Of a DNA stretch of 64,000 bases, positions 45,675 through 62,357 are shown piece by piece. The DNA comes from a phage. A program made the translations under genes and the position numbers. Numbering within the stretch: position 1 is the first letter of the stretch; each line of letters opens with the position of its first letter. The stretch lies in the NCBI GenBank assembly GCA_033664045.1, contig GCA_033664045.1_3674.1; one strand, written 5' to 3'. Below the pieces are notes generated by a model. The model was given only the letters and a program-made list of their open reading frames with translations, had not been told where the DNA came from and did not search any database.

Positions 45675-46880
45675 ATGATTTTCATCTACGAACATTTCAA
45701 AACCCGTAAAGAAGCACGAGACCGCCGTGCAGAACTGGAGAAAAAGGGTTTCACATGTGCCATTGAGAAAGGCGACACAACCTGGACACTGGCAGTGGGT
45801 GCCCCAGAGTTGTTCGATCCTGACCGTGACAGCGTCTGCTACACCCGTGAGGATTTTGAAACCCGCGAAGAGGCCCGTTTATTTCGATATGGTCTGGAAG
45901 ATAACGGCAAGTACGCTATGATCTTAGATTTAGGCGAAGGTTCCGTTAAACGTTGGGGCGTGGTATATCCCCTGTGTGTTGTTCACGGTGTGGGGTTCAC
46001 TGGGGTGGCAATCAAGTCAGAAGAACCTTTAGTAGAAGTCAAAGATCCGGTGCTGGAGGTGGTGAGCAGTGTGTCTCAGCAACAGACTCGAAGCATCGAG
46101 CCTTTGGTAGTTATTTGTGGGGAACTCCTCCAGATCACCTGCAACGAAGGTATTTTTGAAATTCGCCGCAGTGAAAGTGAGGAAGTTTACCAGAAAGTCT
46201 TCGACCATATCTCTGTTCAGGAATATGATGAGGCAATTGGTGAAATCCTTGTCTGGCTGGAACGCAAGAATGAGTTCACCACACTTGCAGACAACCTGAT
46301 CATGAAAGATGGTAAGCTCTACTACTACGGTGTAGAGATGCGATCCACCATTGCAAAGAAAATTGAGAAAGACTATGCAGACGGAACACTGGATGACCGC
46401 TATGTGAAATTCCTCGTTCGCCTGCTACGCAATCCTTCTGCAAAATCTGTAAACATGCTCTACGATTTTATGCAGGCCAACGATATCCAGATTGCAGAAG
46501 ATGGTCGAATCGTTTGCTACAAAGGTGTTCAGTTTAACGGCAGCAAGTGGGTGGATTGGCACAGTGGTAAAGTTCCACAATACCAGGGTGCTTTTGTATC
46601 CATGCCTCGTAACTTTGTAGAGGATGATCCGGAAGCTGCGTGCTCCTATGGCTTACACTGCGCCAGCAAAGAGTATGCAAAAAGCTACGGCACTGTAATG
46701 ACTGTTATGGTTGACCCTGCAGATGTGGTTAGTGTGCCATACCAACACAATAGCGCCAAGTGCCGTGCATGCCGCTATGAGATTGTGGTAGCTCCGGAAG
46801 CACGCAAGGACGGAGACCCGATTGAATACGTGGTTGACAGAGATGGTAACACTATCGACATTCTTTACGAGGAGGTGTAA
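45675..46880 (+). CDS. rIIB: rIIB-like protein
   Basis: Immediately downstream of the rIIA-like gene; C-terminal pattern MPRNFVEDD...GLHCASKEY...VVSVPY...AKCRACRYE resembles rIIB from memory. Confidence 0.5.
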   Translation: MIFIYEHFKTRKEARDRRAELEKKGFTCAIEKGDTTWTLAVGAPELFDPDRDSVCYTREDFETREEARLFRYGLEDNGKYAMILDLGEGSVKRWGVVYPLCVVHGVGFTGVAIKSEEPLVEVKDPVLEVVSSVSQQQTRSIEPLVVICGELLQITCNEGIFEIRRSESEEVYQKVFDHISVQEYDEAIGEILVWLERKNEFTTLADNLIMKDGKLYYYGVEMRSTIAKKIEKDYADGTLDDRYVKFLVRLLRNPSAKSVNMLYDFMQANDIQIAEDGRIVCYKGVQFNGSKWVDWHSGKVPQYQGAFVSMPRNFVEDDPEAACSYGLHCASKEYAKSYGTVMTVMVDPADVVSVPYQHNSAKCRACRYEIVVAPEARKDGDPIEYVVDRDGNTIDILYEEV

Positions 46881-48250
46881 TGGAAAAAGGGCAGTATGAT
46901 GTAGGCACAGATGCTGCCCTCGTTGCAATCATGAGCGGTGAGAATGTCTTCGTTTCAGGACCCGCAGGTTGTGGGAAGACGTACCTCATCAACATGATCC
47001 AGTCAATGTATGGAGACTCTTGCATAACGGTTGCCCCGACAGGGGTAGCCGCTTTAAACGTTAATGGAGCAACAGCACACCGAACCTTCGATCTTGCAGC
47101 AGGTGTGAGCATGGAGTCAGACTGGACCGCAATAAGGGCAAAAACAGCAAAGCCTTTGAAAAGCAAGGCATTTACCATCCTAATTATCGATGAAATCTCT
47201 ATGATCCGTGCTGATAAGTTTATAGAGATGGATAGGAAACTTCGCTTCCTTCGAAAAAATGACAAACCTTTCGGAGGCATACAGGTCATATTGTTTGGCG
47301 ACTTTTACCAGGCACCTCCTGTTGTCTCTTCTATGGAGAAGGAAGCCTACTTCAACTTCTACCATACGGACCTGTGTTGCTATACCGAATCTTGGAAAGA
47401 GCTTGACCTCCACAACATAGCCCTAGTAGATCAGTTCCGACAGGAGTCTATTCGATTTGCCACAATGCTCAACTGTGTTCGTGAGGGTCGTCGCATAAAA
47501 GAGGTTGTAGCAGAGCTTAATGCTCGCTGTTACAAAGGCGGTGTACCAACAGACGCTCTCACAATTTGCGCCACCAACAAACAAGCAGAGGAAGTGAACA
47601 GAAGGTTCTATGATGCCATCAACGCCCCAGAGAAGGTATACACTGGTGAAATGAAGGGTAAGTTTCCCTCCACCCTACCAGTTGAGCAGGAGATGAAGTT
47701 GAAAATTGGCATGAAAGTTATGATAACCGCCAACGATGTTGACCCAACGCACAAAGTACCTTATTATGTTAACGGAACACGTGCCACAATTGTTAAATTT
47801 AAGAACAAGGCAGTGGTGGTAGAGCTTGAAGATGGAACACAGGTTGACATAGAGCAGATGTTGTGGGAGAATAACGAATATAAGCCATCTCAGAGATACA
47901 ACATTGCAGAAAGGAAGATGGAGAAGTTTATAGAGAGGGTAGTGATCGGGTCATATAAGCAACTCCCTCTGAAATCTGGGTACGCCGTAACATCTCATAA
48001 AAGTCAAGGACTTACACTAGATTGTTACAACCTAGACCTTGGAAAGAACGGAGCTTTCTCTCCTGGGATGACGTATGTCGCTTTGAGTAGAGTTAAGACA
48101 ATACAAGGAATAAACTTGTTGCGTCCACTAAGAGAGGTTGACATTATTGTTGACCCGCGAGTCGTAGAGTTTTACAATACAACATTCCCTGACTTAGACA
48201 AAATTGTCAGGAAAGATTTTGAAACCAGAGCCGAAGAGGGGGACGTATGA
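46880..48250 (+). CDS. SF1B DNA helicase (Dda/RecD/Pif1-like)
   Basis: Walker A SGPAGCGKTY, Walker B ILIIDEISM, C-terminal VALSRVKT. Confidence 0.75.
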   Translation: MEKGQYDVGTDAALVAIMSGENVFVSGPAGCGKTYLINMIQSMYGDSCITVAPTGVAALNVNGATAHRTFDLAAGVSMESDWTAIRAKTAKPLKSKAFTILIIDEISMIRADKFIEMDRKLRFLRKNDKPFGGIQVILFGDFYQAPPVVSSMEKEAYFNFYHTDLCCYTESWKELDLHNIALVDQFRQESIRFATMLNCVREGRRIKEVVAELNARCYKGGVPTDALTICATNKQAEEVNRRFYDAINAPEKVYTGEMKGKFPSTLPVEQEMKLKIGMKVMITANDVDPTHKVPYYVNGTRATIVKFKNKAVVVELEDGTQVDIEQMLWENNEYKPSQRYNIAERKMEKFIERVVIGSYKQLPLKSGYAVTSHKSQGLTLDCYNLDLGKNGAFSPGMTYVALSRVKTIQGINLLRPLREVDIIVDPRVVEFYNTTFPDLDKIVRKDFETRAEEGDV

Positions 48251-49895: not shown

Positions 49896-50657
49896 TTGAA
49901 ATTTATCTACAAAGAACACTACCACAAAGGTGTTGTGTGGAGTCTATTTGACGGGTCTGGTGGTGCAGTCATTGACTGGGCAAAAGCTGGATATCTGTGC
50001 CTGTGCTTTAATGCAGAAGGTGCTGATCACGGCAGCTATGCAGAGGTGATAACCGATCATCCCAACATTCACTACGTGGATTATTGGATTGACCCATGGT
50101 TCCCTCAGGAAACTTTTTGCATGTACCCAGCTCCAGACTTTATTCTTGCATTTCCTCCGTGCACGCATTTAGCGGTATCAGGTGCCGCACATTTTAAGAA
50201 AAAGCTGGCTAAGGACCCCATGATCCAAATTAATGCTGTAAAGGATGCTCGGGTTGCGGAAGAACTGGGAGAGATTTACGATTGCCCGTGGCATGTAGAG
50301 AATCCTGTTGGTGTTATGTCCACACTGTGGCGCAAACCTGATTACCGTTTTCATCCTTCTGACTATGGCGGGTATTTACCGGAGGATGATGTAAACCCCT
50401 GGTTTCCTGAATTTATAGCTCCACGTGATGCCTATCCAAAAATAACTTGCGGCTGGATAGGTAATGGATTTATAATCCCGGCCACAAAACCTGTCCCGCA
50501 AATAGTTGACGCGGTTAGCGGGTATTCCATGCAACACGCCAAGCTGGGTGGAAAGAGTGCAAGAACGAAGATGATCCGAAGCCTTACACCACGTGGCTGG
50601 GCAAAAGCCGTATTCTTAGCAAACGAGCCTGTAGTAAGGAGAAGGGCCAATGGTTGA
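49896..50657 (+). CDS. compact DNA (cytosine-5) methyltransferase-like protein
   Basis: Motif I LFDGSGG, motif IV FPPCTHLAVSG, motif VI ENPVG, motif X-like WIGNGF; TTG start after AGGAGA (the track's GTG start sits inside the terminator hairpin). Confidence 0.5.
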   Translation: MKFIYKEHYHKGVVWSLFDGSGGAVIDWAKAGYLCLCFNAEGADHGSYAEVITDHPNIHYVDYWIDPWFPQETFCMYPAPDFILAFPPCTHLAVSGAAHFKKKLAKDPMIQINAVKDARVAEELGEIYDCPWHVENPVGVMSTLWRKPDYRFHPSDYGGYLPEDDVNPWFPEFIAPRDAYPKITCGWIGNGFIIPATKPVPQIVDAVSGYSMQHAKLGGKSARTKMIRSLTPRGWAKAVFLANEPVVRRRANG

Positions 50658-51321
50658 CTGGAGCAAGTATTTCACCTACAGTGACGGCAAACTGTTCTGG
50701 GCGTACACTGCAAAAGCCGGAAGGGGCAGGGTTATACATTACGCAGGTGAGGAGGCCACAGGTACAGATAAAAATGGCTATAGAGTGATATATGTGTCAG
50801 GTGTTGGGAGTGTTCGTAGGCATAGAATAGTTTGGGAGATGCATTACGGGGAGATACCCGAAGGACTTGTTGTGCGGCACAAGAACGACATAGCAGGCGA
50901 TGATAGGGTAGAGAACTTAGTCCTAGGTACACAGGGCGATAATGCACGAGACATGATCTACAGTGACAAACTGAGCATTAACAATACCTCAGGGTGTCGA
51001 GGTGTACGCTACCATAAAGGCATAAAAAGATGGATTGCATCTGTTGGAGACATATACTTAGGATGTTTTAAGACAAAAGAGGATGCAATTGCATGCAGAA
51101 AGTTATGGGAGAAGGGAAAATTCGTCCCGCAAGAGTTGGATGTTAGAAACACTAGCGGTGTAACAGGAGTGTTCTATGTGCCGAGCTCTGGAAGGTGGAG
51201 AGTAAGAGTGCAAAGCGGCAAAAAGAGAAAGAGCTATGGCACTTACAATACTTTAGAAGAAGCAAAAGCTGTAAGAGATAGAGTGATGAAAGAGATTGAG
51301 GAGTTTAAAGATGGGGAATAA
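50650..51321 (+). CDS. HNH endonuclease with AP2 domains (free-standing homing endonuclease type)
   Basis: HNH_3-like RRHRIVWEMHYGEIPEGLVVRHKNDIAGDDRVENL plus two AP2-like repeats (SGCRGVRYH..., SGVTGVFYV...). Confidence 0.7.
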   Translation: MVDWSKYFTYSDGKLFWAYTAKAGRGRVIHYAGEEATGTDKNGYRVIYVSGVGSVRRHRIVWEMHYGEIPEGLVVRHKNDIAGDDRVENLVLGTQGDNARDMIYSDKLSINNTSGCRGVRYHKGIKRWIASVGDIYLGCFKTKEDAIACRKLWEKGKFVPQELDVRNTSGVTGVFYVPSSGRWRVRVQSGKKRKSYGTYNTLEEAKAVRDRVMKEIEEFKDGE

Positions 51322-53389
51322 GTTTATATCCTCTGCATATAGCCGCTATGGAGAACCCAACCCGGTTGCAACAAGATACAAAAGTGGGGGCAGTATGAAA
51401 CGAGACTATCGTGATGAAAAAGAGGTTGAAACTGTAGAGACTGTTTTAGAAAATACTAAAATTGTCCCTGTTCCACAACAGAATATAGGGCTAATGGCTG
51501 CTCAATATTTTGGTGTGCGATCAGCATTATCCCAAGAAGATGGTGTGACAGTCACTGCAACATATTTTCCATATTATGACCGCTACGGAAATCTGTCTGG
51601 TTTCAAAAAACGTGATTGGTCTAAGCCGAAAGAGCAGAAAGGACACTGGTCTGTAGTAGGCATCGTAAAGGCTAACTCCCAGATGTTTGGTCAAAAGCTG
51701 TGTGCATCTTCCAACAACCGTAAGCAGATTAACGTTTGTGAGGGGGAAGGTGATGTTATTGCAGCATGGCAGGCTGCATATCAGATACAAGTAAAAGGGA
51801 TTCTCACCAACGCTAAAGCCCCGGCAAAGGTGAAGCAGTGGGCTAAAGAGGTCCAAGACGGGATCGACGCAGTTATCAACGGTGGTGATCTGGCAGGAAA
51901 ACCCTGCCTGCCTTTTGTTGGAATTAACTGTGGATGTGCAAACGCAGTAGATACTTTTGCAAACAATGAGAAGTTTATCCGTAGCTATGGAACAGTTGTG
52001 CTGGCAATGGATAACGATGCAGCTAACGAGGTAGAGAAGCAAAAACACGTCATCAAAGGTGTTGAGGCCACGCACAATATCGCAGCATTTTTGATGGCTG
52101 ATAACGTTTACCACGTAGAATACCCCGGTGAAGTAAACGACCCTGATGGTGTAAAAGATATCCGAGACATGCTGAAGGCTAAAAAGCTGGAAGATATTGT
52201 CAACATGTTCCGGCATCCTGTTAAATATGTACCTGATGCTGTGTCGGATTTAGAAGACTTCTCTATCGAGTCTTTGCGGAAAAAGACTTCCAACGGGGTA
52301 GATATCAGTGCAGAGTTCCCAAAACTGCAAAAAATGCTAAAAGGCTTGCACAAAGGGACACTCGTAATGCTTACAGGTCCATCAGGCGGCGGTAAAACAA
52401 CCGTGGCTAAAAAACTGGAACACTGTATTGCAAGATACCTAATGGACCCGACATGCCCGAAGGCCGATGACTATGAAGAGGATGATCGTCTATGTATGAT
52501 CCATCTTGAGGAGGATCCAGAGGAAGCAATTAACTCCTTGTATGCAAACCAGTTAGGGTTTGATGTTAAAGAGTTTGTTGAAGATCCTAGCCAGTTTTTA
52601 ACTGATCAAGAACACGCAGAGATTCACCAATCATGGGCAAAAGCTGGAAAAATCAAAGTGTTCAAACATTTCGGGTCTATTCCGGTGGACGAGTTGATTA
52701 CCAAGCTTAAGCAAATGGTTTGCCTGTACCATTGTCGTTATATTGTGCTGGATCACCTGTCCATGGTAATTTCAGGGCTTAATGTTAAGGATGAGCGAAA
52801 AGAACTGGACATGGCTATGACCCAACTGGCTGCGTTTTGTAAGCAGTTTAACGTGTTTATCTTGGTGATCGCTCACCTCAAACGTACAGAGATTGTGCCT
52901 CCTAAAGACAAGGATGGTAACCCGTTACCTTTCTGGTATCCTGTGCGAAAAGAGAATTTGCGAGGATCGGCTGGGCTTGAACAGTTGAGTTGGGTAGTCA
53001 TAGGTGTCGAGGCCGAAGAAATGGTGGATCGTTCTCGTGGGCGTGTCCGTTTAGTAGGTCTTAAAAACCGTCCAGCAAAAACATTGGGTATTGCAGACAC
53101 TTTGGTTATGGACCCACATACAGGTAAGTTCCATGATGCCAGTAATTGGTACTGGGACAAAGAAATGCAAATGTTTACAGATGGAGAAGGTGGGGAGGTT
53201 GTTTGGAGACCTCAGGCTATGTTTGAGGATCAGGAGCATGCAGTTGTAGAAACACCTATGGGCAAGGTTGTGGCTGATAAGGTTGTAACTCCTACTGTTA
53301 AGCCTGTTGACACGCAGGAAGACCTCCAGTACGATGATCCGTCCTCTGACCATGTTCCTGGTTTTGAGGATGATGAAACACCTTTTTAA
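51311..53389 (+). CDS. DNA primase-helicase (Toprim + DnaB-like helicase, T7 gp4-type)
   Basis: Toprim-like VCEGEGDVIAAW; Walker A LTGPSGGGKTT; start placed at the ATG at 51311 after AGGAG. Confidence 0.7.
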   Translation: MGNKFISSAYSRYGEPNPVATRYKSGGSMKRDYRDEKEVETVETVLENTKIVPVPQQNIGLMAAQYFGVRSALSQEDGVTVTATYFPYYDRYGNLSGFKKRDWSKPKEQKGHWSVVGIVKANSQMFGQKLCASSNNRKQINVCEGEGDVIAAWQAAYQIQVKGILTNAKAPAKVKQWAKEVQDGIDAVINGGDLAGKPCLPFVGINCGCANAVDTFANNEKFIRSYGTVVLAMDNDAANEVEKQKHVIKGVEATHNIAAFLMADNVYHVEYPGEVNDPDGVKDIRDMLKAKKLEDIVNMFRHPVKYVPDAVSDLEDFSIESLRKKTSNGVDISAEFPKLQKMLKGLHKGTLVMLTGPSGGGKTTVAKKLEHCIARYLMDPTCPKADDYEEDDRLCMIHLEEDPEEAINSLYANQLGFDVKEFVEDPSQFLTDQEHAEIHQSWAKAGKIKVFKHFGSIPVDELITKLKQMVCLYHCRYIVLDHLSMVISGLNVKDERKELDMAMTQLAAFCKQFNVFILVIAHLKRTEIVPPKDKDGNPLPFWYPVRKENLRGSAGLEQLSWVVIGVEAEEMVDRSRGRVRLVGLKNRPAKTLGIADTLVMDPHTGKFHDASNWYWDKEMQMFTDGEGGEVVWRPQAMFEDQEHAVVETPMGKVVADKVVTPTVKPVDTQEDLQYDDPSSDHVPGFEDDETPF

Positions 53390-53447: not shown

Positions 53448-56225
53448 ATGAGTATGTATAGCTTCGATTTTGAGGCCTCTGGGCTTTTGGAAGATCCAGA
53501 CCTTTATTATCACTGCGGCCTGTTTAAAGCGTTGAATAAGAACCGTTTTATGCTGTTCCTTCCTCTGAATGACCGCACACACTACTCCGAGGAGGATATA
53601 GAGAAGGCTAAGAACTTTATTCTGGCAAAGAAAACTCTTTATAAGGATTTTGAAGTTCGCATAGCAGATTTTTCGGAGTTGGAAGGGTGGCTTACAGGAA
53701 ATTCTGACTGGTCACCCACAGCTTTGAACTGCCACAACTGCTACAGCTACGACTTTATGCTGATGGAGAGATTGTCCGGTATTCATTTTGATATGTTCCG
53801 TGATCCTAAGTGTATGGGGACTATCAACGACCACCAGGTTAATCTGTTTGATACATTGGCTATGAGCCGAATTTTGTGGCCTGACCGACCTTTGCCAAAA
53901 GGTTGTCCAGACGCTGTATTCAACCCGGTTACTAAGAAAATGCAGCCTGTTGGTCCTCACGGCCTTATGGCATGGGGCTACGCTCTTGGTAACCAGAAAG
54001 TTCAAATTGATGACTGGCGCGATCTTCCGTTGTGGAAGTATGTGGATCGTGTATTCGAGGACGTTATCATCCAGGAGCTGCTCTGGAAAGAGCTGGTAGC
54101 GGAATCAAAAGGTGTATTCTACGGCAAATCTGACATGCAGAACTTTATGTACGATCCTGCCAAAGAGAAGCCGAAAGGATTCAAGAAGATCACCTGGAAG
54201 AACGCATTACGTCGAGGCATGCTGCAGCACTTCCTGATGGAGCTGCAGGCCCGTCAGGGCGTATACTTCGACATAGATGGAGCTATTGCTTTACGTGACC
54301 GTTGCGATGCGTGGATGAAAGAAATCGCTGATCGTGTTGAACCACAACTGCCTTTAAAAGAGCTGTCAATGTCTCAGCGGCCCAAGTTCCCTGAAAAGCC
54401 GTTTAACCAAGACGGGACAATCTCCAATAATGGTTGGAAATGGTTAAAAGATAAGCTTGGCTATCCTGTAGACATGAGCGCTTTAGAGTTCAAAGCCCCG
54501 CCTAAGAGAGCATTTACCTCTACAGGAGATGTCAGCAAGATGGGGATAAAATGGTGTGAAGAGATGGGATGCAAAGACCCCGATAAGATGGCTGATTTCT
54601 TGAGAGGCTATATTAAGGGCACTTCCACACCACACCCTTTGCCTAAAGAGCTGATGGATCAGGCAATAAGTGATCTACAGCAGAAGCGAATGCCGGACTG
54701 CAAGATACCTATGAAAATCAGCAACCAGGACGACATTAAGCGATACCTGATCAGTGCTGGCTGGCTTCCGACAATGTGGAGAACTAAGGATGTAACTAAA
54801 GACAGCAAGAAGAAAGCTTTACCTGATGCAGATGTTGATGCACGAGTATATGCATATATGGACGAGCTTTTGGAGTCAGAGTATTGTGACCTAATTATCA
54901 ACTTCTGGAACAAAACTGATGCTAAGTTCCAGACAACCGTGCACAAGTTCCGAAGCTTTCCTAACTCCGAAAGGATTAAAAAGGAAGTATTCGGGAAAAT
55001 ACGTAGAAAAGCTAGGGCACTTATTACTTCTCCGCAACTGAAAGATACGTTTGGACACCTATGCCCAAATCTTGAAAAATTGAACGGAGAGATGGCTAAA
55101 GATATCGTCTTGTGGTTATCATTGCGAAACCGCAGATCGGTCCTTGATCCAATCAAGGAGGATAAGGTTGATACTGGTCTTCTTAATCACCCACGCTTGA
55201 AGATTGACCATAAGCTTCCTGCTAAAAGTTCTGGATTAACAAACACTTCCCGACAGAAACACAGTATTTGTGCAAACATGCCTAAACCATCTCCTAAAGT
55301 GGTTATGGGTAAAGAGATGCGTAGTCTGTGGGGTGTTCCTCCAGGATACTTTGAGATCGGTATTGACGGGTCCAACTTAGAGCAGCTTATCGGGGCTTGG
55401 GGTGCCTTTGAGTTCGACAACGGCTTGTATTATGATGTTGTAAGTAACGGGGACGCACACCAAAACAATGCTGAGGCATATACAAAAGTAGCAGGCAGAG
55501 AGGTGTCTCGTAACGACGGTAAACCTATCACGTATGGGGTTATGTACGGGGCACAAAAAGATAAAGTTGCAGACATGCTGGATATCTCTCCAGAGTTGGG
55601 GCAAAGGGTAATCGATGCGCTTTGGGATGCCAACCCAGGTCTTAAGGGGCGTAAAGAGGATCTGGAGAAATTCTGGGAAGCAACTGGTAAGAAGTTTATC
55701 TACTCTTTTGATGGTCATGCCATCTGGACCCGATCTAAACACTCTTTACTTAATGCATACCAACAAAATGGCGGTGCATCGTTGTGTGATTTAGTTGGGA
55801 TACTCATGCACCACCAAATGGTGAGGCGTGGGTGGTACGATGAAGGTGTTCGTCGTATTATCTATTACCATGACGAATATCAGCTTCAAGTACCTGACAC
55901 ACCGAAGTATAAGACTGTGTACACCTTCGACACAATTGAAGAATTGGAAGCATTTAAGGCAGAGCAGGAGGCCAAACTTCATGTGTTCGACGGTCATAAG
56001 TACAAAAAGGCACGCAAGGATGAAAACGGAAACGAAGTGGTTGACAGAGACGGAAACACGGTGTACGATCCTATCTTGAACGATGACGGAAAGCTTGAAC
56101 TTATCTGGAGTCCTGTGGGCGAAATGGTGGTACATTGCTTCTGGCAAGCTTCTAAAATGATGGGAGTCCCGTTCCAGATCACAGGTGAATACTTGTGTGG
56201 TCGTAATTGGGGTGATTGTCACTAA
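53448..56225 (+). CDS. family A DNA polymerase with 3'-5' exonuclease domain
   Basis: Exo I FDFEASGL, motif A GIDGSNLEQ, motif B RNDGKPITYGVMYG, motif C YYHDEYQL. Confidence 0.85.
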   Translation: MSMYSFDFEASGLLEDPDLYYHCGLFKALNKNRFMLFLPLNDRTHYSEEDIEKAKNFILAKKTLYKDFEVRIADFSELEGWLTGNSDWSPTALNCHNCYSYDFMLMERLSGIHFDMFRDPKCMGTINDHQVNLFDTLAMSRILWPDRPLPKGCPDAVFNPVTKKMQPVGPHGLMAWGYALGNQKVQIDDWRDLPLWKYVDRVFEDVIIQELLWKELVAESKGVFYGKSDMQNFMYDPAKEKPKGFKKITWKNALRRGMLQHFLMELQARQGVYFDIDGAIALRDRCDAWMKEIADRVEPQLPLKELSMSQRPKFPEKPFNQDGTISNNGWKWLKDKLGYPVDMSALEFKAPPKRAFTSTGDVSKMGIKWCEEMGCKDPDKMADFLRGYIKGTSTPHPLPKELMDQAISDLQQKRMPDCKIPMKISNQDDIKRYLISAGWLPTMWRTKDVTKDSKKKALPDADVDARVYAYMDELLESEYCDLIINFWNKTDAKFQTTVHKFRSFPNSERIKKEVFGKIRRKARALITSPQLKDTFGHLCPNLEKLNGEMAKDIVLWLSLRNRRSVLDPIKEDKVDTGLLNHPRLKIDHKLPAKSSGLTNTSRQKHSICANMPKPSPKVVMGKEMRSLWGVPPGYFEIGIDGSNLEQLIGAWGAFEFDNGLYYDVVSNGDAHQNNAEAYTKVAGREVSRNDGKPITYGVMYGAQKDKVADMLDISPELGQRVIDALWDANPGLKGRKEDLEKFWEATGKKFIYSFDGHAIWTRSKHSLLNAYQQNGGASLCDLVGILMHHQMVRRGWYDEGVRRIIYYHDEYQLQVPDTPKYKTVYTFDTIEELEAFKAEQEAKLHVFDGHKYKKARKDENGNEVVDRDGNTVYDPILNDDGKLELIWSPVGEMVVHCFWQASKMMGVPFQITGEYLCGRNWGDCH

Positions 56226-58023: not shown

Positions 58024-58412
58024 TGAAAAATATTTGGGATATTGATATCTTTGAAGCCTCTAAGCTTGACGGTGCTGATGGAGTGATTATGGTGTCTGAT
58101 GGCAAGGCAACACTAACTTCCGGAGATATCATCTATGCCTTGGACGAGCTGGCGCTTCTGAAGTCTACCGGTAACACTCTAGAGGAGCGTCTTCAAGGCT
58201 TCGCCTTCAAAGAAGGCACAAATACCGCCATGATGTGCACCACACGGACAGTTCAGGTGGGTAACGGTGTCTATATGATTATTGCTGTGTGTCCTAAATT
58301 CAGCAACGTCAACAAAGATGATGCTGACGCGGTAAACGATGTGGTTGTTCTCTTCGTGGGTGACGCTATGGCAGATCTGATGAATGCAGGAGAAGCAGCA
58401 AATGAAGACTGA
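58023..58412 (+). CDS. hypothetical protein (129 aa)
   Basis: TAATG-coupled; RBS GAGGAAG. Confidence 0.45.
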   Translation: MKNIWDIDIFEASKLDGADGVIMVSDGKATLTSGDIIYALDELALLKSTGNTLEERLQGFAFKEGTNTAMMCTTRTVQVGNGVYMIIAVCPKFSNVNKDDADAVNDVVVLFVGDAMADLMNAGEAANED

Positions 58413-58704
58413 AAACATCACCCCAGCAGGGTTCTTAAAAGTATACCGTGAACTGCTATATACTACAGAGGACAGTGTTCTGGAGTATCCAGAATATCTT
58501 TTGCTGTATAAGTATCTACAGGAGGCTGGTGAAAATCTGCCAGTTAATGCAGAAGGCGGTCCGAACTGGGTATACAGCGCATGGAGAAAGGTTGACATTC
58601 TCCCAGATCCAGGTAAAGATATGGTAGTTTGGCAGCTTATCAACAACATCGGGATTCCAATCTTCGATGAGGCTGTTAAAATCTATTTTGAACTTGACGA
58701 TTAA
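58402..58704 (+). CDS. hypothetical protein (100 aa)
   Basis: Track ORF trimmed to Met7, which has AGGAGAAG upstream; overlaps the upstream gene by 11 nt. Confidence 0.4.
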   Translation: MKTENITPAGFLKVYRELLYTTEDSVLEYPEYLLLYKYLQEAGENLPVNAEGGPNWVYSAWRKVDILPDPGKDMVVWQLINNIGIPIFDEAVKIYFELDD

Positions 58705-59050: not shown

Positions 59051-59416
59051 ATGGAACAAATGAACGATCAAGCGTCGGTTGCGATGAACGAGCAAGAACA
59101 ACCTCAAGAATTTTTCTTAGGGTTAAGTAAAGATCAAGTGTCTCTTCTGCTAGTGCTTTCTTCTTTCATGGGAAGACTTCAGGAGCTCACACAACAGCCA
59201 GAGGCTGAACAATTATTCCAAGCTTTGCGTGAAGAAGAAAAATATCGTCGTTTGGACTATGCCTTAGGTTGGGTAGCTCAACAACGAGATATGCTAATGG
59301 CCCTCTCTGGGACTACAAGTTTTGCAATGGGCCTGTTGGCTCAAGTTCAGGACAAATTAATTCAAGCAGGGTTTGCACACACGGCAAACACTAACGAAGA
59401 ACAAGGAGATAAATAA
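59051..59416 (+). CDS. hypothetical protein (121 aa)
   Basis: RBS GGAGA. Confidence 0.45.
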   Translation: MEQMNDQASVAMNEQEQPQEFFLGLSKDQVSLLLVLSSFMGRLQELTQQPEAEQLFQALREEEKYRRLDYALGWVAQQRDMLMALSGTTSFAMGLLAQVQDKLIQAGFAHTANTNEEQGDK

Positions 59417-60642
59417 TGAGCGTTATTCAACAATTCGCTAACCCAATGAATCCGCGTGAAACTGTTTTACTGGCTCACGGCATGATTAAACGTGTTAGCA
59501 TCAAGCCTATCAAAGGTGCTGATCCTACAACAGGTATTAAAACCACTGTGTGGCAAGGTAAGAAAATTGAATCCAGCCACACCATCTCTTTACTGATTTC
59601 TGAACTGGATTCCTCTGATAACCTGCTTCAAGGTGGTGAAGAAGTCTGGATCAGCATGGGTGATAAGCTGCTTAAACCAGGTCATCAAGACTCTGTCTCT
59701 GTTAAGATTGATGACAAGTGGGAAACCGTAACGCCAGGATGGATCGTAAATATCCCTTTGAAGGCAAACGAGCATAACGGTAAGACCTATTACAAGGGCT
59801 CACTGGCTAAGATGGTTAAGCTGGGTGCAGGAGAGGCTCCAGCAGCGACTCAGCAGCAAAAACAGCAACAAGGTGCACAATCACAAGGCCAGAAGCAGAA
59901 ACCTCAGCAGAATGCCAATCAGGACGTTTTACGCATCTATGGTGATGTGACTCAGATTGTTGGCAACGTGGTTACTGTTAATGACCACAAGATTGGCGAA
60001 GGTGCTATGGTTGTAACTGATGAGCAGCTTAAAGACCTGGTGGTAGGTGGTCGTGTTGCAGCCATTGTTGACAAAGACACCGGAAACATTATCAGTGGTT
60101 TCAAGGCCTATCCCCCTAAGGCAGAGAACGGCACTCAAGGCTCTGGTGGCAAGCGTAAATCCTCTTACGACCCTATCGGTGTGGAAACGGGGCATAGCAT
60201 CAATGCGTTGCAGATCATCCTGGATCGCGGGTTTAAGGTAGACGACCCGCTGGGCGTGGCTAAAACACTGCACGTAGTCACCATTGAGCTTAAGAAAGAG
60301 TATGCTCAAGCCACCAACCGAACTGAAGATGAAGTAGGTGCCAGTGTCGGTAATGCGGTGTTGAACGCTTGTCGCCGTATTGACAAGAAAACGAAAGTTG
60401 ATGATTTTGCAGCGGCAATTACTGCAGAAGCAAAAGATGTCTTGACTAATCTGGCTGAACCGTTGTACGATTGGATCAAGAACGGTGCTGGGTCAACCGA
60501 CCATCAAGAACCTCAGGCTGCCAAACAGGAAGCAGCTCCACAGCAAAACACTGTAGACGCTCCTCCTGTAAATGATGAGGAAGATGACCCAATGGATCAG
60601 AATCCAGCACAGTACGCCTTTGATGATGACATCCCTTTTTAA
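59416..60642 (+). CDS. ssDNA-binding protein-like with Gln-rich linker and host-SSB-type C-terminal tail (DDDIPF)
   Basis: Protein ends ...AQYAFDDDIPF, identical to the E. coli SSB C-terminal hexapeptide; low-complexity QQQKQQQGAQSQGQKQKPQQ linker; RBS AAGGAGA. Confidence 0.55.
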   Translation: MSVIQQFANPMNPRETVLLAHGMIKRVSIKPIKGADPTTGIKTTVWQGKKIESSHTISLLISELDSSDNLLQGGEEVWISMGDKLLKPGHQDSVSVKIDDKWETVTPGWIVNIPLKANEHNGKTYYKGSLAKMVKLGAGEAPAATQQQKQQQGAQSQGQKQKPQQNANQDVLRIYGDVTQIVGNVVTVNDHKIGEGAMVVTDEQLKDLVVGGRVAAIVDKDTGNIISGFKAYPPKAENGTQGSGGKRKSSYDPIGVETGHSINALQIILDRGFKVDDPLGVAKTLHVVTIELKKEYAQATNRTEDEVGASVGNAVLNACRRIDKKTKVDDFAAAITAEAKDVLTNLAEPLYDWIKNGAGSTDHQEPQAAKQEAAPQQNTVDAPPVNDEEDDPMDQNPAQYAFDDDIPF

Positions 60643-60656
60643 CAATTAGTTAACAT

Positions 60657-60686
60657 AGCCCTGCCCGAAAGGGTGGGGCATTTTTG
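60657..60686 (+). terminator. rho-independent terminator with GAAA tetraloop; exact copy of the hairpin at 49850
   Basis: gccctgcccGAAAgggtggggc followed by atttttg, then an AGGAGA RBS. Confidence 0.7.
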
Positions 60687-60704
60687 TATAAGGAGATCTG
60701 AAAA

Positions 60705-61483: not shown

Positions 61484-61909
61484 ATGATCTATGAAATGCC
61501 AAAACTGATTCGCGACGATGCCCAAAACGCTCACACCATTATTATGGGCAAGCGCATGGATATTATTTGTCATAAAGATTTCTGGGAAGGGAGTTACTTC
61601 ACAGAATATTTTGGTAAACTGGATAATGGTCTGCTGATCCAGTTCTACACCGATGCGGAAAACAACATTCACTGGGAGTTCGAAACTGAAGATATCCATA
61701 AACTTTTCACCTTCCTAGGTATTAAGGTTGAGGCCAAGTTCGAAGAAGGTGAGTGCGACGATTGTGGATTCTACGAGGTAACAGATTTCTATCTCCCAAG
61801 TGGTGAGAACCTTTACTATGAAAGCCACTTCGGCAACTCAAATATGCCACAAGGTTGGGATGAGTTTTTTGAAATTGCGGAAGAGGAGCTGGCATACCGT
61901 GATTATTGA
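61484..61909 (+). CDS. hypothetical acidic protein (141 aa)
   Basis: RBS GGAGAA. Confidence 0.45.
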   Translation: MIYEMPKLIRDDAQNAHTIIMGKRMDIICHKDFWEGSYFTEYFGKLDNGLLIQFYTDAENNIHWEFETEDIHKLFTFLGIKVEAKFEEGECDDCGFYEVTDFYLPSGENLYYESHFGNSNMPQGWDEFFEIAEEELAYRDY

Positions 61910-62357
61910 TACTGTAGAGGGAGATCTAATCTCCATTTTCAAGAAAGGGTCAGGCCACATGATCCACGGTTGTAACTGCTTTCACACAATGGGTGCAGGT
62001 ATAGCGAAAGATATTGCCCGTGAGTTCCCTCAAGCACTGGCAGCCGACAAAGAGACTGCCTATGGTAATCTAGACAAGCTGGGTATGTTTTCTTGTTGGG
62101 AGCATTTTGCCAAGAACAGGGTTGTATATGGGATCAACCTGTATACCCAGTTCTACCCAGGGCCCAATGCTGAATACTTCTCAATCATGAAAGGTTTTGA
62201 GCGAGTCAACGAGGTATTCAAAGGTGTGTCATTGCCGTTCTACATCCCTAAGATCGGGTGCGGCATAGGCGGTTTGAAGTGGGAGCACGTGGAAGATGTC
62301 ATTAATCTTGCAACCACGGATATTGATGTGGTTGTAGTAGAGTACAAAAAGTGTTGA
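61899..62357 (+). CDS. macro-domain-like protein (possible ADP-ribose binding/hydrolase)
   Basis: GTG start after GAGGAG, overlapping the upstream gene by 11 nt; GDLISI...HMIHGCNCFHTMGAGIAKDI and FYIPKIGCGIGGL resemble the macro-domain pattern. Confidence 0.5.
   Translation: MIIDTVEGDLISIFKKGSGHMIHGCNCFHTMGAGIAKDIAREFPQALAADKETAYGNLDKLGMFSCWEHFAKNRVVYGINLYTQFYPGPNAEYFSIMKGFERVNEVFKGVSLPFYIPKIGCGIGGLKWEHVEDVINLATTDIDVVVVEYKKC

Follow-up and report, generated by a model that had tools for sequence, protein, structure and literature searches.

A probable replicative single-stranded DNA-binding protein carrying the C-terminal tip of E. coli SSB in rV5-like phages

The stretch of phage DNA analysed here (NCBI GenBank assembly GCA_033664045.1, contig GCA_033664045.1_3674.1; 64,000 nucleotides (nt), referred to as the window) belongs to Vequintavirus and is that of an rV5-like Escherichia coli phage. 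The last large gene of a plus strand block in the window encodes a protein of 408 amino acids (aa), termed the SSB-like protein, which ends in the same residues as SSB (single-stranded DNA-binding protein) of E. coli. A Shine-Dalgarno-like sequence precedes the gene and a strong intrinsic terminator with an RNA folding energy of -20 kcal/mol (z -2.96) follows it; coordinates are listed in Table 1. At the DNA level, 116 phage records share 92-99.6% identity with the gene; nearly all of them label it 'hypothetical protein', and E. coli Vequintavirus accounts for almost the entire set. The gene probably encodes the phage's own replicative SSB, from a phage-specific family for which no curated model exists (estimated probability about 0.68). 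This reading is favoured by the OB fold, the arrangement of a folded core followed by an acidic linker and the host tip, the conservation of this tip, the gene block, the position of the protein as sole candidate and the genetics of the defence system DRT10.

Translation of the gene gives the C-terminus ...NPAQYAFDDDIPF, directly followed by TAA, and the tip peptide is PAQYAFDDDIPF. The ending FDDDIPF given in the original prediction, which had been made by a model from the sequence alone, was confirmed and agrees in 7/7 residues with the end of E. coli SSB. The E. coli SSB used as query was 100% identical to sequence P0175, named SSB1 of Escherichia coli. A BLASTP alignment of both proteins covered the last 37 residues only (15/37 identical, E 5e-4), and similarity found by tblastn and BLASTP was restricted to the last 37-56 residues. 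Using six-frame translations of the window and of a complete related genome, that of the BASEL phage Escherichia phage RudolfGeigy/Bas52 (MZ501102, one of the 116 records; hereafter Bas52), all stop-to-stop segments of ≥ 40 aa were scanned for the ending [DE][DEST][IVLM]P[FWYLM]. Among these 2188 segments, the open reading frame (ORF) of the SSB-like protein was the only one with such an ending. In an alignment of 113 family members, the tip is the best-conserved segment (F408 95%, P407 93%) and the linker just before it is hypervariable. The single matching ORF and the strongest conservation within the family exclude a chance match of the tip.

Searches with the full protein in Pfam, in PADLOC-independent family collections and among PDB sequences found nothing. 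At E ≤ 1, the Pfam search did not return the SSB family PF00436, and its sole match was unrelated (E 0.23). PF00436 was also matched by 0/32 distant family members, for which Pfam gave scattered chance matches only. The profile of the N-terminal domain had no significant match among PDB sequences. When this profile was compared to E. coli SSB using hhalign, the probability was 0.05%, whereby the power was low since the SSB side consisted of a single sequence; the relatives found in the homolog search with the E. coli SSB core were all ≥ 92% identical among the best 120 matches, hence only one SSB sequence was used. This negative result is weak evidence. PHROG 4477 ('unknown function') was matched over residues 1-408 with an E-value of 9.5e-174. 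The earlier statement that the N-terminus is not that of a canonical SSB holds at the sequence level, given the missing PF00436 match and the hhalign probability.

The full-length protein was modelled with AlphaFold2 (AF2) on an alignment of 23 sequences, and the folded parts reached values of mostly 79-93 for the predicted local distance difference test (pLDDT). The N-terminal domain, modelled with a pLDDT of 89.5 and a predicted template modelling score (pTM) of 0.81, is predicted to adopt an OB fold, and its top structural matches are SSBs. Structure prediction had been proposed as a check of the original prediction, whose by-eye impression of an N-terminal region unlike a canonical SSB OB fold failed at the fold level: an OB fold is predicted with confidence. 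Residues of this domain conserved in the family are G22, H55, G82, K97, W102 (aromatic in 100%), G108, G122, K123 and Y126. Stn1, RPA32, the large subunit of ExoVII and RecO match the domain at similar values. The following linker is rich in glutamine, as had been noted before, and its length and sequence differ between homologs.

Behind this linker, the model contains a second small barrel with the topology b1-b2-b3-short helix-b4-b5. Foldseek found IF1, Rpt OB and RPA OB domains over 65-76 residues of it with a probability of 0.98-0.99, but with E-values of 0.1-0.2. The occupancy of the corresponding alignment columns is 0.33 across the family, and the barrel is missing in short-form members (P0052-P0056); it is an accessory domain.

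The next folded part is a four-helix domain, where polar motifs are conserved more strongly than anywhere else in the protein except the tip (D252, G255, G259, H260, N263, G308, G312, N317, C319 and R320). Its invariant columns form the motifs D252-x2-G-x3-GH-x2-N and G308-x3-G312-N-x2-L-N-x-C-R. Neither Pfam (23 fragments searched) nor a profile search of PDB sequences revealed a significant relative of this domain. Bcl-2-family proteins matched the helical part in Foldseek with a probability of 0.15-0.35 and were treated as noise. The entire tail (aa 358-408) has a net charge of -12 and is disordered (pLDDT < 50 for residues 359-408); a disordered linker, an acidic DDDIPF tip and a free terminal Phe are found in the order known from canonical SSBs. 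With the whole model, Foldseek gave weak matches, largely to nucleic-acid-binding OB proteins (RPA, phage p2 SSB, gp2.5-like DUF2815), and none at E ≤ 0.001 against the PDB.

An OB fold combined with a helical domain could also indicate a RecO-like recombination mediator or annealing factor, instead of a protein coating single-stranded DNA (ssDNA) stoichiometrically. This is very unlikely: Pfam shows no RecO match, the structural matches to RecO are no better than those to dozens of other OB domains, and a disordered acidic linker with tip is a hallmark of SSBs. RecO itself binds the SSB tip rather than bearing one.

Table 1. Coordinates of the SSB-like gene, its parts, neighbouring genes and features of related loci. 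Positions refer to the window unless a locus is named.
Feature	Coordinates	Strand	Description
SSB-like gene	59416..60642	+	ATG start, 408 aa, TAA stop at 60640-60642; from ORF listing and sequence
Shine-Dalgarno-like AAGGAGA	59403..59409	+	6 nt 5' of ATG; read from sequence
N-terminal OB-fold domain	59416..59838	+	aa 1-141; predicted ssDNA-binding core
Gln-rich disordered linker	59839..59919	+	aa 142-168; 12 Q in 27 residues; pLDDT < 50
Second small beta-barrel, OB/S1-like	59920..60123	+	aa 169-236; DSSP of model
Short disordered linker			aa 237-249; AF2 model
Four-helix domain	60163..60486	+	aa 250-357; helices 253-270, 278-299, 304-321, 328-355; pLDDT 79-93
Codon of D252	60169-60171		DRT10 escape position
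Codon of Y351	60466-60468		DRT10 escape position
Acidic, Pro/Gln-rich disordered linker	60487..60615	+	aa 358-400; pLDDT 33-38; hypervariable in family
C-terminal tip AFDDDIPF	60616..60639	+	final 7 residues FDDDIPF as at the end of E. coli SSB
Intrinsic terminator	60658..60689	+	16 nt past stop; GCCCTGCCC-GAAA-GGGTGGGGC, then T-run; terminator scan; also given as 60658-60679
Upstream 121-aa acidic ORF	59051..59416	+	stop overlaps SSB-like start as ATGA; PHROG 7310, unknown function
PIF1-like helicase	46880-48250	+	same block
HNH_3 + AP2 homing-endonuclease-like ORF	50650-51321	+	overlaps start of DnaB-like primase-helicase
DnaB-like primase-helicase	51296-53389	+	same block
Family-A DNA polymerase	53448-56225	+	same block
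DUF7238 ORF	58384-58704	+	flanks SSB-like region
Macro-domain ORF	61800-62357	+	E 1.3e-5; flanks SSB-like region
Extension after IPF	L003 1824-1872 (JES2013)		further carriers: 533-member cluster P0001, P0044, P0048, P0051, P0059, P0109, P0125, L009, L014, L016, L020
EndoVII/HNH-like homing endonuclease	L003 1844-2423 (JES2013); L006 5233-5811; L009 5232-5843		PHROG 1035; directly after SSB-like gene
Prophage locus with an extension ORF	L034 3669-4192		extension ORF located directly after a PF00436 ORF
227-aa ORF ending ...EDTDDDIPW	L021 2866-3549	+	two genes upstream of short-form family member; no Pfam match

The plus strand block of the SSB-like gene also contains genes for a family-A DNA polymerase, 3.2 kb upstream of the SSB-like gene, a DnaB-like primase-helicase and a PIF1-like helicase. 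Further genes of the block are rIIA/rIIB homologs (according to annotation transfer) and some ten small ORFs with no known function. An SSB is missing from the complete annotation of Bas52, which comprises polymerase, primase/helicase, helicase, ligase, exonucleases and ribonucleotide reductases, and tblastn with E. coli SSB against the window and Bas52 returned nothing except the tail of the SSB-like gene. A T7-like replisome is expected to come with its own SSB, and the sole candidate here is this gene. Regarding the two options left by the original prediction, a genuine SSB or a tail mimic, the former is favoured by the OB fold, the replication module, the sole candidate and the layout of linker and tip.

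In comparison with E. coli SSB (PF00436; PDB 1kaw), the core of the SSB-like protein has no detectable sequence or profile similarity, and its 408 aa (178 aa in E. coli SSB) include the second barrel and the four-helix domain as additional parts. E. coli SSB tetramerises through its OB domain. As non-canonical phage SSBs in which an OB core is joined to an acidic tail with Phe at its end, T7 gp2.5 and the gp2.5-like DUF2815 proteins (PDB 4klk, 4jg2) resemble the SSB-like protein, and T7 gp2.5 also serves a replisome of family-A polymerase and primase-helicase. The gp2.5-like structures were weak Foldseek matches (E 0.11-0.23 against the PDB, 4.8e-3 against a DUF2815 protein in BFVD). However, there is no profile match to gp2.5/DUF2815, the tip of the SSB-like protein is the host-type DDDIPF, and gp2.5 has no helical domain. 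In the SSB of phage HK620, the partner of Sak4, the last six residues are needed to bring the partner to SSB-coated ssDNA (PMC5928155). Though distant, HK620 SSB can still be recognised as a canonical SSB; it forms a tetramer and has the tail NDYPPF, diverged from that of the host, whereas the SSB-like protein combines a core unrecognisable by sequence with a tail identical to that of the host.

From these systems it could be assumed that the tip serves the phage replisome and not the host, as in T7 gp2.5, contacts polymerase and primase-helicase and autoregulates ssDNA binding, the identity to the host tip being due to convergence or inheritance, with no functional hijacking. The T7-like replisome, whose family-A polymerase and primase-helicase of the DnaB type are encoded within one gene block, would suit this assumption, as would the way in which T7 gp2.5 uses a terminal aromatic residue after an acidic run. 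The tail of HK620 SSB likewise recruits a phage partner (PMC5928155; Kong and Richardson 1998 is cited there for interactions of SSB tails with partners in phages). Nevertheless, such an explanation is unlikely, since the 7/7 identity to the host exceeds a generic acidic-aromatic need, the family keeps D-D-D-[IV]-P-F without drift, and the genetic link to host ExoI described below indicates host factors. Service to the replisome and binding of host clients are not mutually exclusive: the exact host-type tip argues for host clients and, by analogy to the T7-like replisome, gp2.5 and HK620 SSB, phage proteins may be clients too.

The SSB-like protein is identical in 406/408 positions (99.5%) to Bas52_0087 (QXV84166.1) of Bas52. 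Both proteins have the same length, FDDDIPF tip, D252 and Y351, and differ by the two substitutions A369T and A401S; the neighbouring genes agree as well, with bas52_0086 as the match of the 121-aa ORF that precedes the SSB-like gene. Bas52_0087 was predicted to be SSB-like in a bioRxiv preprint dated 30 April 2026 (10.64898/2026.04.29.721553), where its FDDDIPF tip was pointed out and the protein was described as 'two OB folds + disordered C-terminus'. According to the same preprint, Bas52 escapes the reverse-transcriptase defence DRT10 (UG17) via D252V or Y351C in Bas52_0087, the escapers being missense only, and wild-type Bas52_0087 supplied in trans strengthens the defence. The requirement of Bas52_0087 for DRT10 activation was demonstrated genetically there, for Bas52 only. 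Overexpression of host SbcB (ExoI) weakens the defence, and competition with SbcB was suggested by the authors (10.64898/2026.04.29.721553). Escape by missense mutations only is consistent with an essential gene. ExoI is a classical client of the SSB C-terminus (SSB-Ct); considering this and the missense-only escapers, the genetics fit an SSB.

The OB/S1-like topology and the Foldseek matches of the modelled second barrel agree with the 'two OB folds' of the preprint. The two analyses differ in what is seen as the core: here, its constant parts are the N-terminal OB fold and the four-helix domain, with the second barrel as an accessory. Further, the preprint assigns the escape sites to a 'putative oligomerisation interface', while in our model both fall in the separate four-helix domain. 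D252 is kept in 74% of the 113 family members. In terms of the model, the four-helix domain may serve as an interface for oligomerisation or for a partner.

The same genetics touch on a decoy whose main role would not be the coating of ssDNA; many copies of the host tip would sequester SSB-interacting enzymes of the host (ExoI, RecJ, RecQ, Ung, PriA and others), and the folded domains would serve just as an oligomeric scaffold. The purpose of such a tail mimic would be to shield phage DNA ends or intermediates, or to shut down host repair. Consistent with this are the seven-residue identity to the host tip kept across the family, the location of the escape mutations in the helical and not in the OB domain, and the opposite effects of SbcB (ExoI) dosage and Bas52_0087 on DRT10, for which SbcB competition was suggested (10.64898/2026.04.29.721553). 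On the other hand, conservation of the OB fold equals that of the helical domain, including W102, K97, K123 and Y126 as expected of a nucleic-acid surface, and the phage has its own replisome and no other detectable SSB. Moreover, expression of Bas52_0087 alone is harmless to E. coli (10.64898/2026.04.29.721553), which speaks against a strong titration of those SSB partners that the host needs, and viable phages often have alleles with an extension burying the tip (see below). Compared with a genuine SSB, a pure decoy is the less likely role and, on its own, quite improbable; nothing supports it specifically.

Family members were collected by a word-indexed search, which gave 56 homologs, and by an exhaustive hidden Markov model (HMM) search with the profile of the N-terminal domain against 1.84 billion cluster representatives, which gave 117 (46 at E ≤ 1e-10). 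The family therefore comprises 117 clusters at 50% identity and has no Pfam model. Its constant core consists of the OB fold, the helical domain and the tip. Distant members are mostly 'short forms' of 230-300 aa, built of OB fold, linker, helical domain, acidic linker and tip, and the second barrel is found in about one third of the family sequences. An exact [IVLM]P[FWY] end was present in 80/117 representatives and the tip plus extra residues in 9/117; the others were mostly fragments or near-variants (APF, SPF, LPFN). The tip is present in all IMG/VR loci whose 3' end is intact (18/18). PHROG 4477 was matched by 29/32 distant relatives tested, and BFVD yielded matches from Erwinia and Aeromonas phages, all of them uncharacterised proteins. 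In a scan of 185,579 bacterial genomes, relatives were found only on two contigs of metagenome-assembled genomes (MAG), hence the family is essentially phage-borne. Two genes upstream of one short-form member lies an ORF whose product also ends in an SSB-like tip, in this case with a terminal Trp (locus L021, Table 1).

In many relatives, but not in the window allele, about 15 residues of the pattern AP[IV]GLQ[YH]G-x3-[IL][HY][AC][LIMF] continue past IPF. With this extension, or cap, the counterpart of the tip peptide reads …DDIPFAPVGLQYGKSRIYAL. Within Vequintavirus, at least 32 of 112 records hold a 3'-end junction with the extension and an adjoining gene for an EndoVII-like homing endonuclease. 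Such an endonuclease gene directly follows the SSB-like gene at three of the loci in Table 1 and is absent from the window. Substitutions cluster near the endonuclease junction, e.g. FDDDIPF to FCDDIPF, as expected of a co-conversion tract. An origin of the extension as a by-product of the homing endonuclease was considered and rejected: in L014, L016 and L020 the extension is followed by a terminator with no endonuclease, and L006 has the endonuclease with no extension. Comparing the 15 extension codons of L016 and L020, eight differences are synonymous and two are conservative non-synonymous ones. The mostly synonymous differences indicate purifying selection on the extension peptide.

The profile of tip plus extension also retrieved short ORFs named 'single-stranded DNA-binding protein (partial)' (P0291-P0311) from Proteus, Providencia, Salmonella, E. 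coli, Klebsiella and Tatumella. Several of them contain the end of a canonical core ('...GGTMQMLGG'), a Gln-rich linker and DDDIPF-APIGLPYPRHAIYVI or similar. In the early region of a prophage (locus L034), the extension ORF directly follows a PF00436 ORF and lies beside excisionase-like and integrase genes. Since the extension is found both on the family core and on canonical prophage SSBs of Enterobacterales, it is a portable module of mobile elements, placed behind the SSB tip of two cores that are unrelated. In the literature searched, the junction string of tip and extension did not occur.

In complexes of the SSB-Ct, the free carboxylate of the terminal Phe belongs to the recognised epitope, and the extension should consequently alter or mask recognition of the tip. 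It is conceivable, though doubtful at present, that the SSB-like protein would be the type member of a widespread, uncurated phage SSB family defined by OB fold, private four-helix domain and host-type tip, in which the cap would switch access to the host SSB interactome. If true, cap-less alleles as in the window would expose the free Phe carboxylate and capped alleles would bury it, and the cap could tune the recruitment of partners or the evasion of defences sensing SSB-like proteins. The capped/uncapped polymorphism offers a direct test of the role of the free C-terminal Phe in vivo.

For a replicative SSB, the following mode of action is proposed. The N-terminal OB fold would bind ssDNA at the phage replication fork, probably assisted by the second barrel in the long form, and the four-helix domain, to which both DRT10 escape substitutions map, would mediate self-association or contact to a partner. 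As in E. coli SSB, the FDDDIPF tip would be bound in the SSB-Ct pockets of genome-maintenance proteins of the host, among them ExoI/SbcB, RecQ, PriA, the chi subunit and Ung, and may also contact the phage family-A polymerase and the DnaB-like primase-helicase by analogy with T7 gp2.5. In this way, the protein would coat phage ssDNA while rivalling host SSB for its partners, and DRT10 would sense some consequence thereof. Several points weigh against a replicative SSB. The core lacks sequence or profile similarity to PF00436 (Pfam; hhalign), and Bas52_0087 alone is neither toxic to E. coli nor triggers DRT10 (10.64898/2026.04.29.721553). In addition, the viable phages with extended alleles may not use the tip canonically, which weakens the view that its canonical use is obligatory. 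Finally, ssDNA binding, oligomerisation and binding of partners by the tip are inferred for this family. Overall, the original prediction is partly supported: its hijacking or titration of host partners is still a matter of inference.

SSB tips form a hub that organises replication, repair and recombination in bacteria, and a phage protein in which this very tip sits on a core of an unrelated kind lends itself naturally to redirecting the hub. Bas52_0087 is also now known as the factor on which the reverse-transcriptase defence DRT10 depends for activation. The same protein, its fold prediction and its tip are already known from the 2026 preprint (10.64898/2026.04.29.721553), together with genetic evidence for the triggering of defence. 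New here are the breadth of the family, the private helical domain, and the capped and uncapped tip alleles common to the family and canonical prophage SSBs. A search of the literature on rV5/Vequintavirus SSB, DDDIPF in phages, tail mimics and the extension motif found the DRT10 preprint only; neither there nor elsewhere in this literature was a biochemical test of ssDNA or partner binding found. For the Vequintavirinae phage HZA56, the main text of a further report attributes escape from Retron-Eco7 to mutated forms of a 'protein of unknown function', which it does not name (PMC12640716).

Upstream of the SSB-like gene lies the 121-aa acidic ORF, which has no Pfam match. Judging from the overlap of its stop codon with the start codon of the SSB-like gene, it appears to be translationally coupled to the latter. 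The ORF is located directly upstream in 13/13 long-form IMG/VR loci, with identities down to 22-39%, and owing to this adjacency both genes are regarded as a conserved pair. As a family-wide partner the ORF was rejected; it is kept with the long form only, and it showed no similarity to the ORF preceding a short-form gene. One GenBank record names this ORF 'putative SSB' with no visible basis.

Many small ORFs of unknown function surround the SSB-like gene, and the SSB-like region is flanked by a Macro-domain ORF and a DUF7238 ORF. Elsewhere in the window, a homing-endonuclease-like ORF with HNH_3 and AP2 domains is located just upstream of the primase-helicase gene and overlaps its start. Among the database records, 16 named 'Campylobacter phage' (MG065644-MG065690) are 97-99% identical to the SSB-like gene and have rV5-like genome sizes; 15 of these list Campylobacter jejuni as the host, and the Campylobacter host labels are probably wrong.

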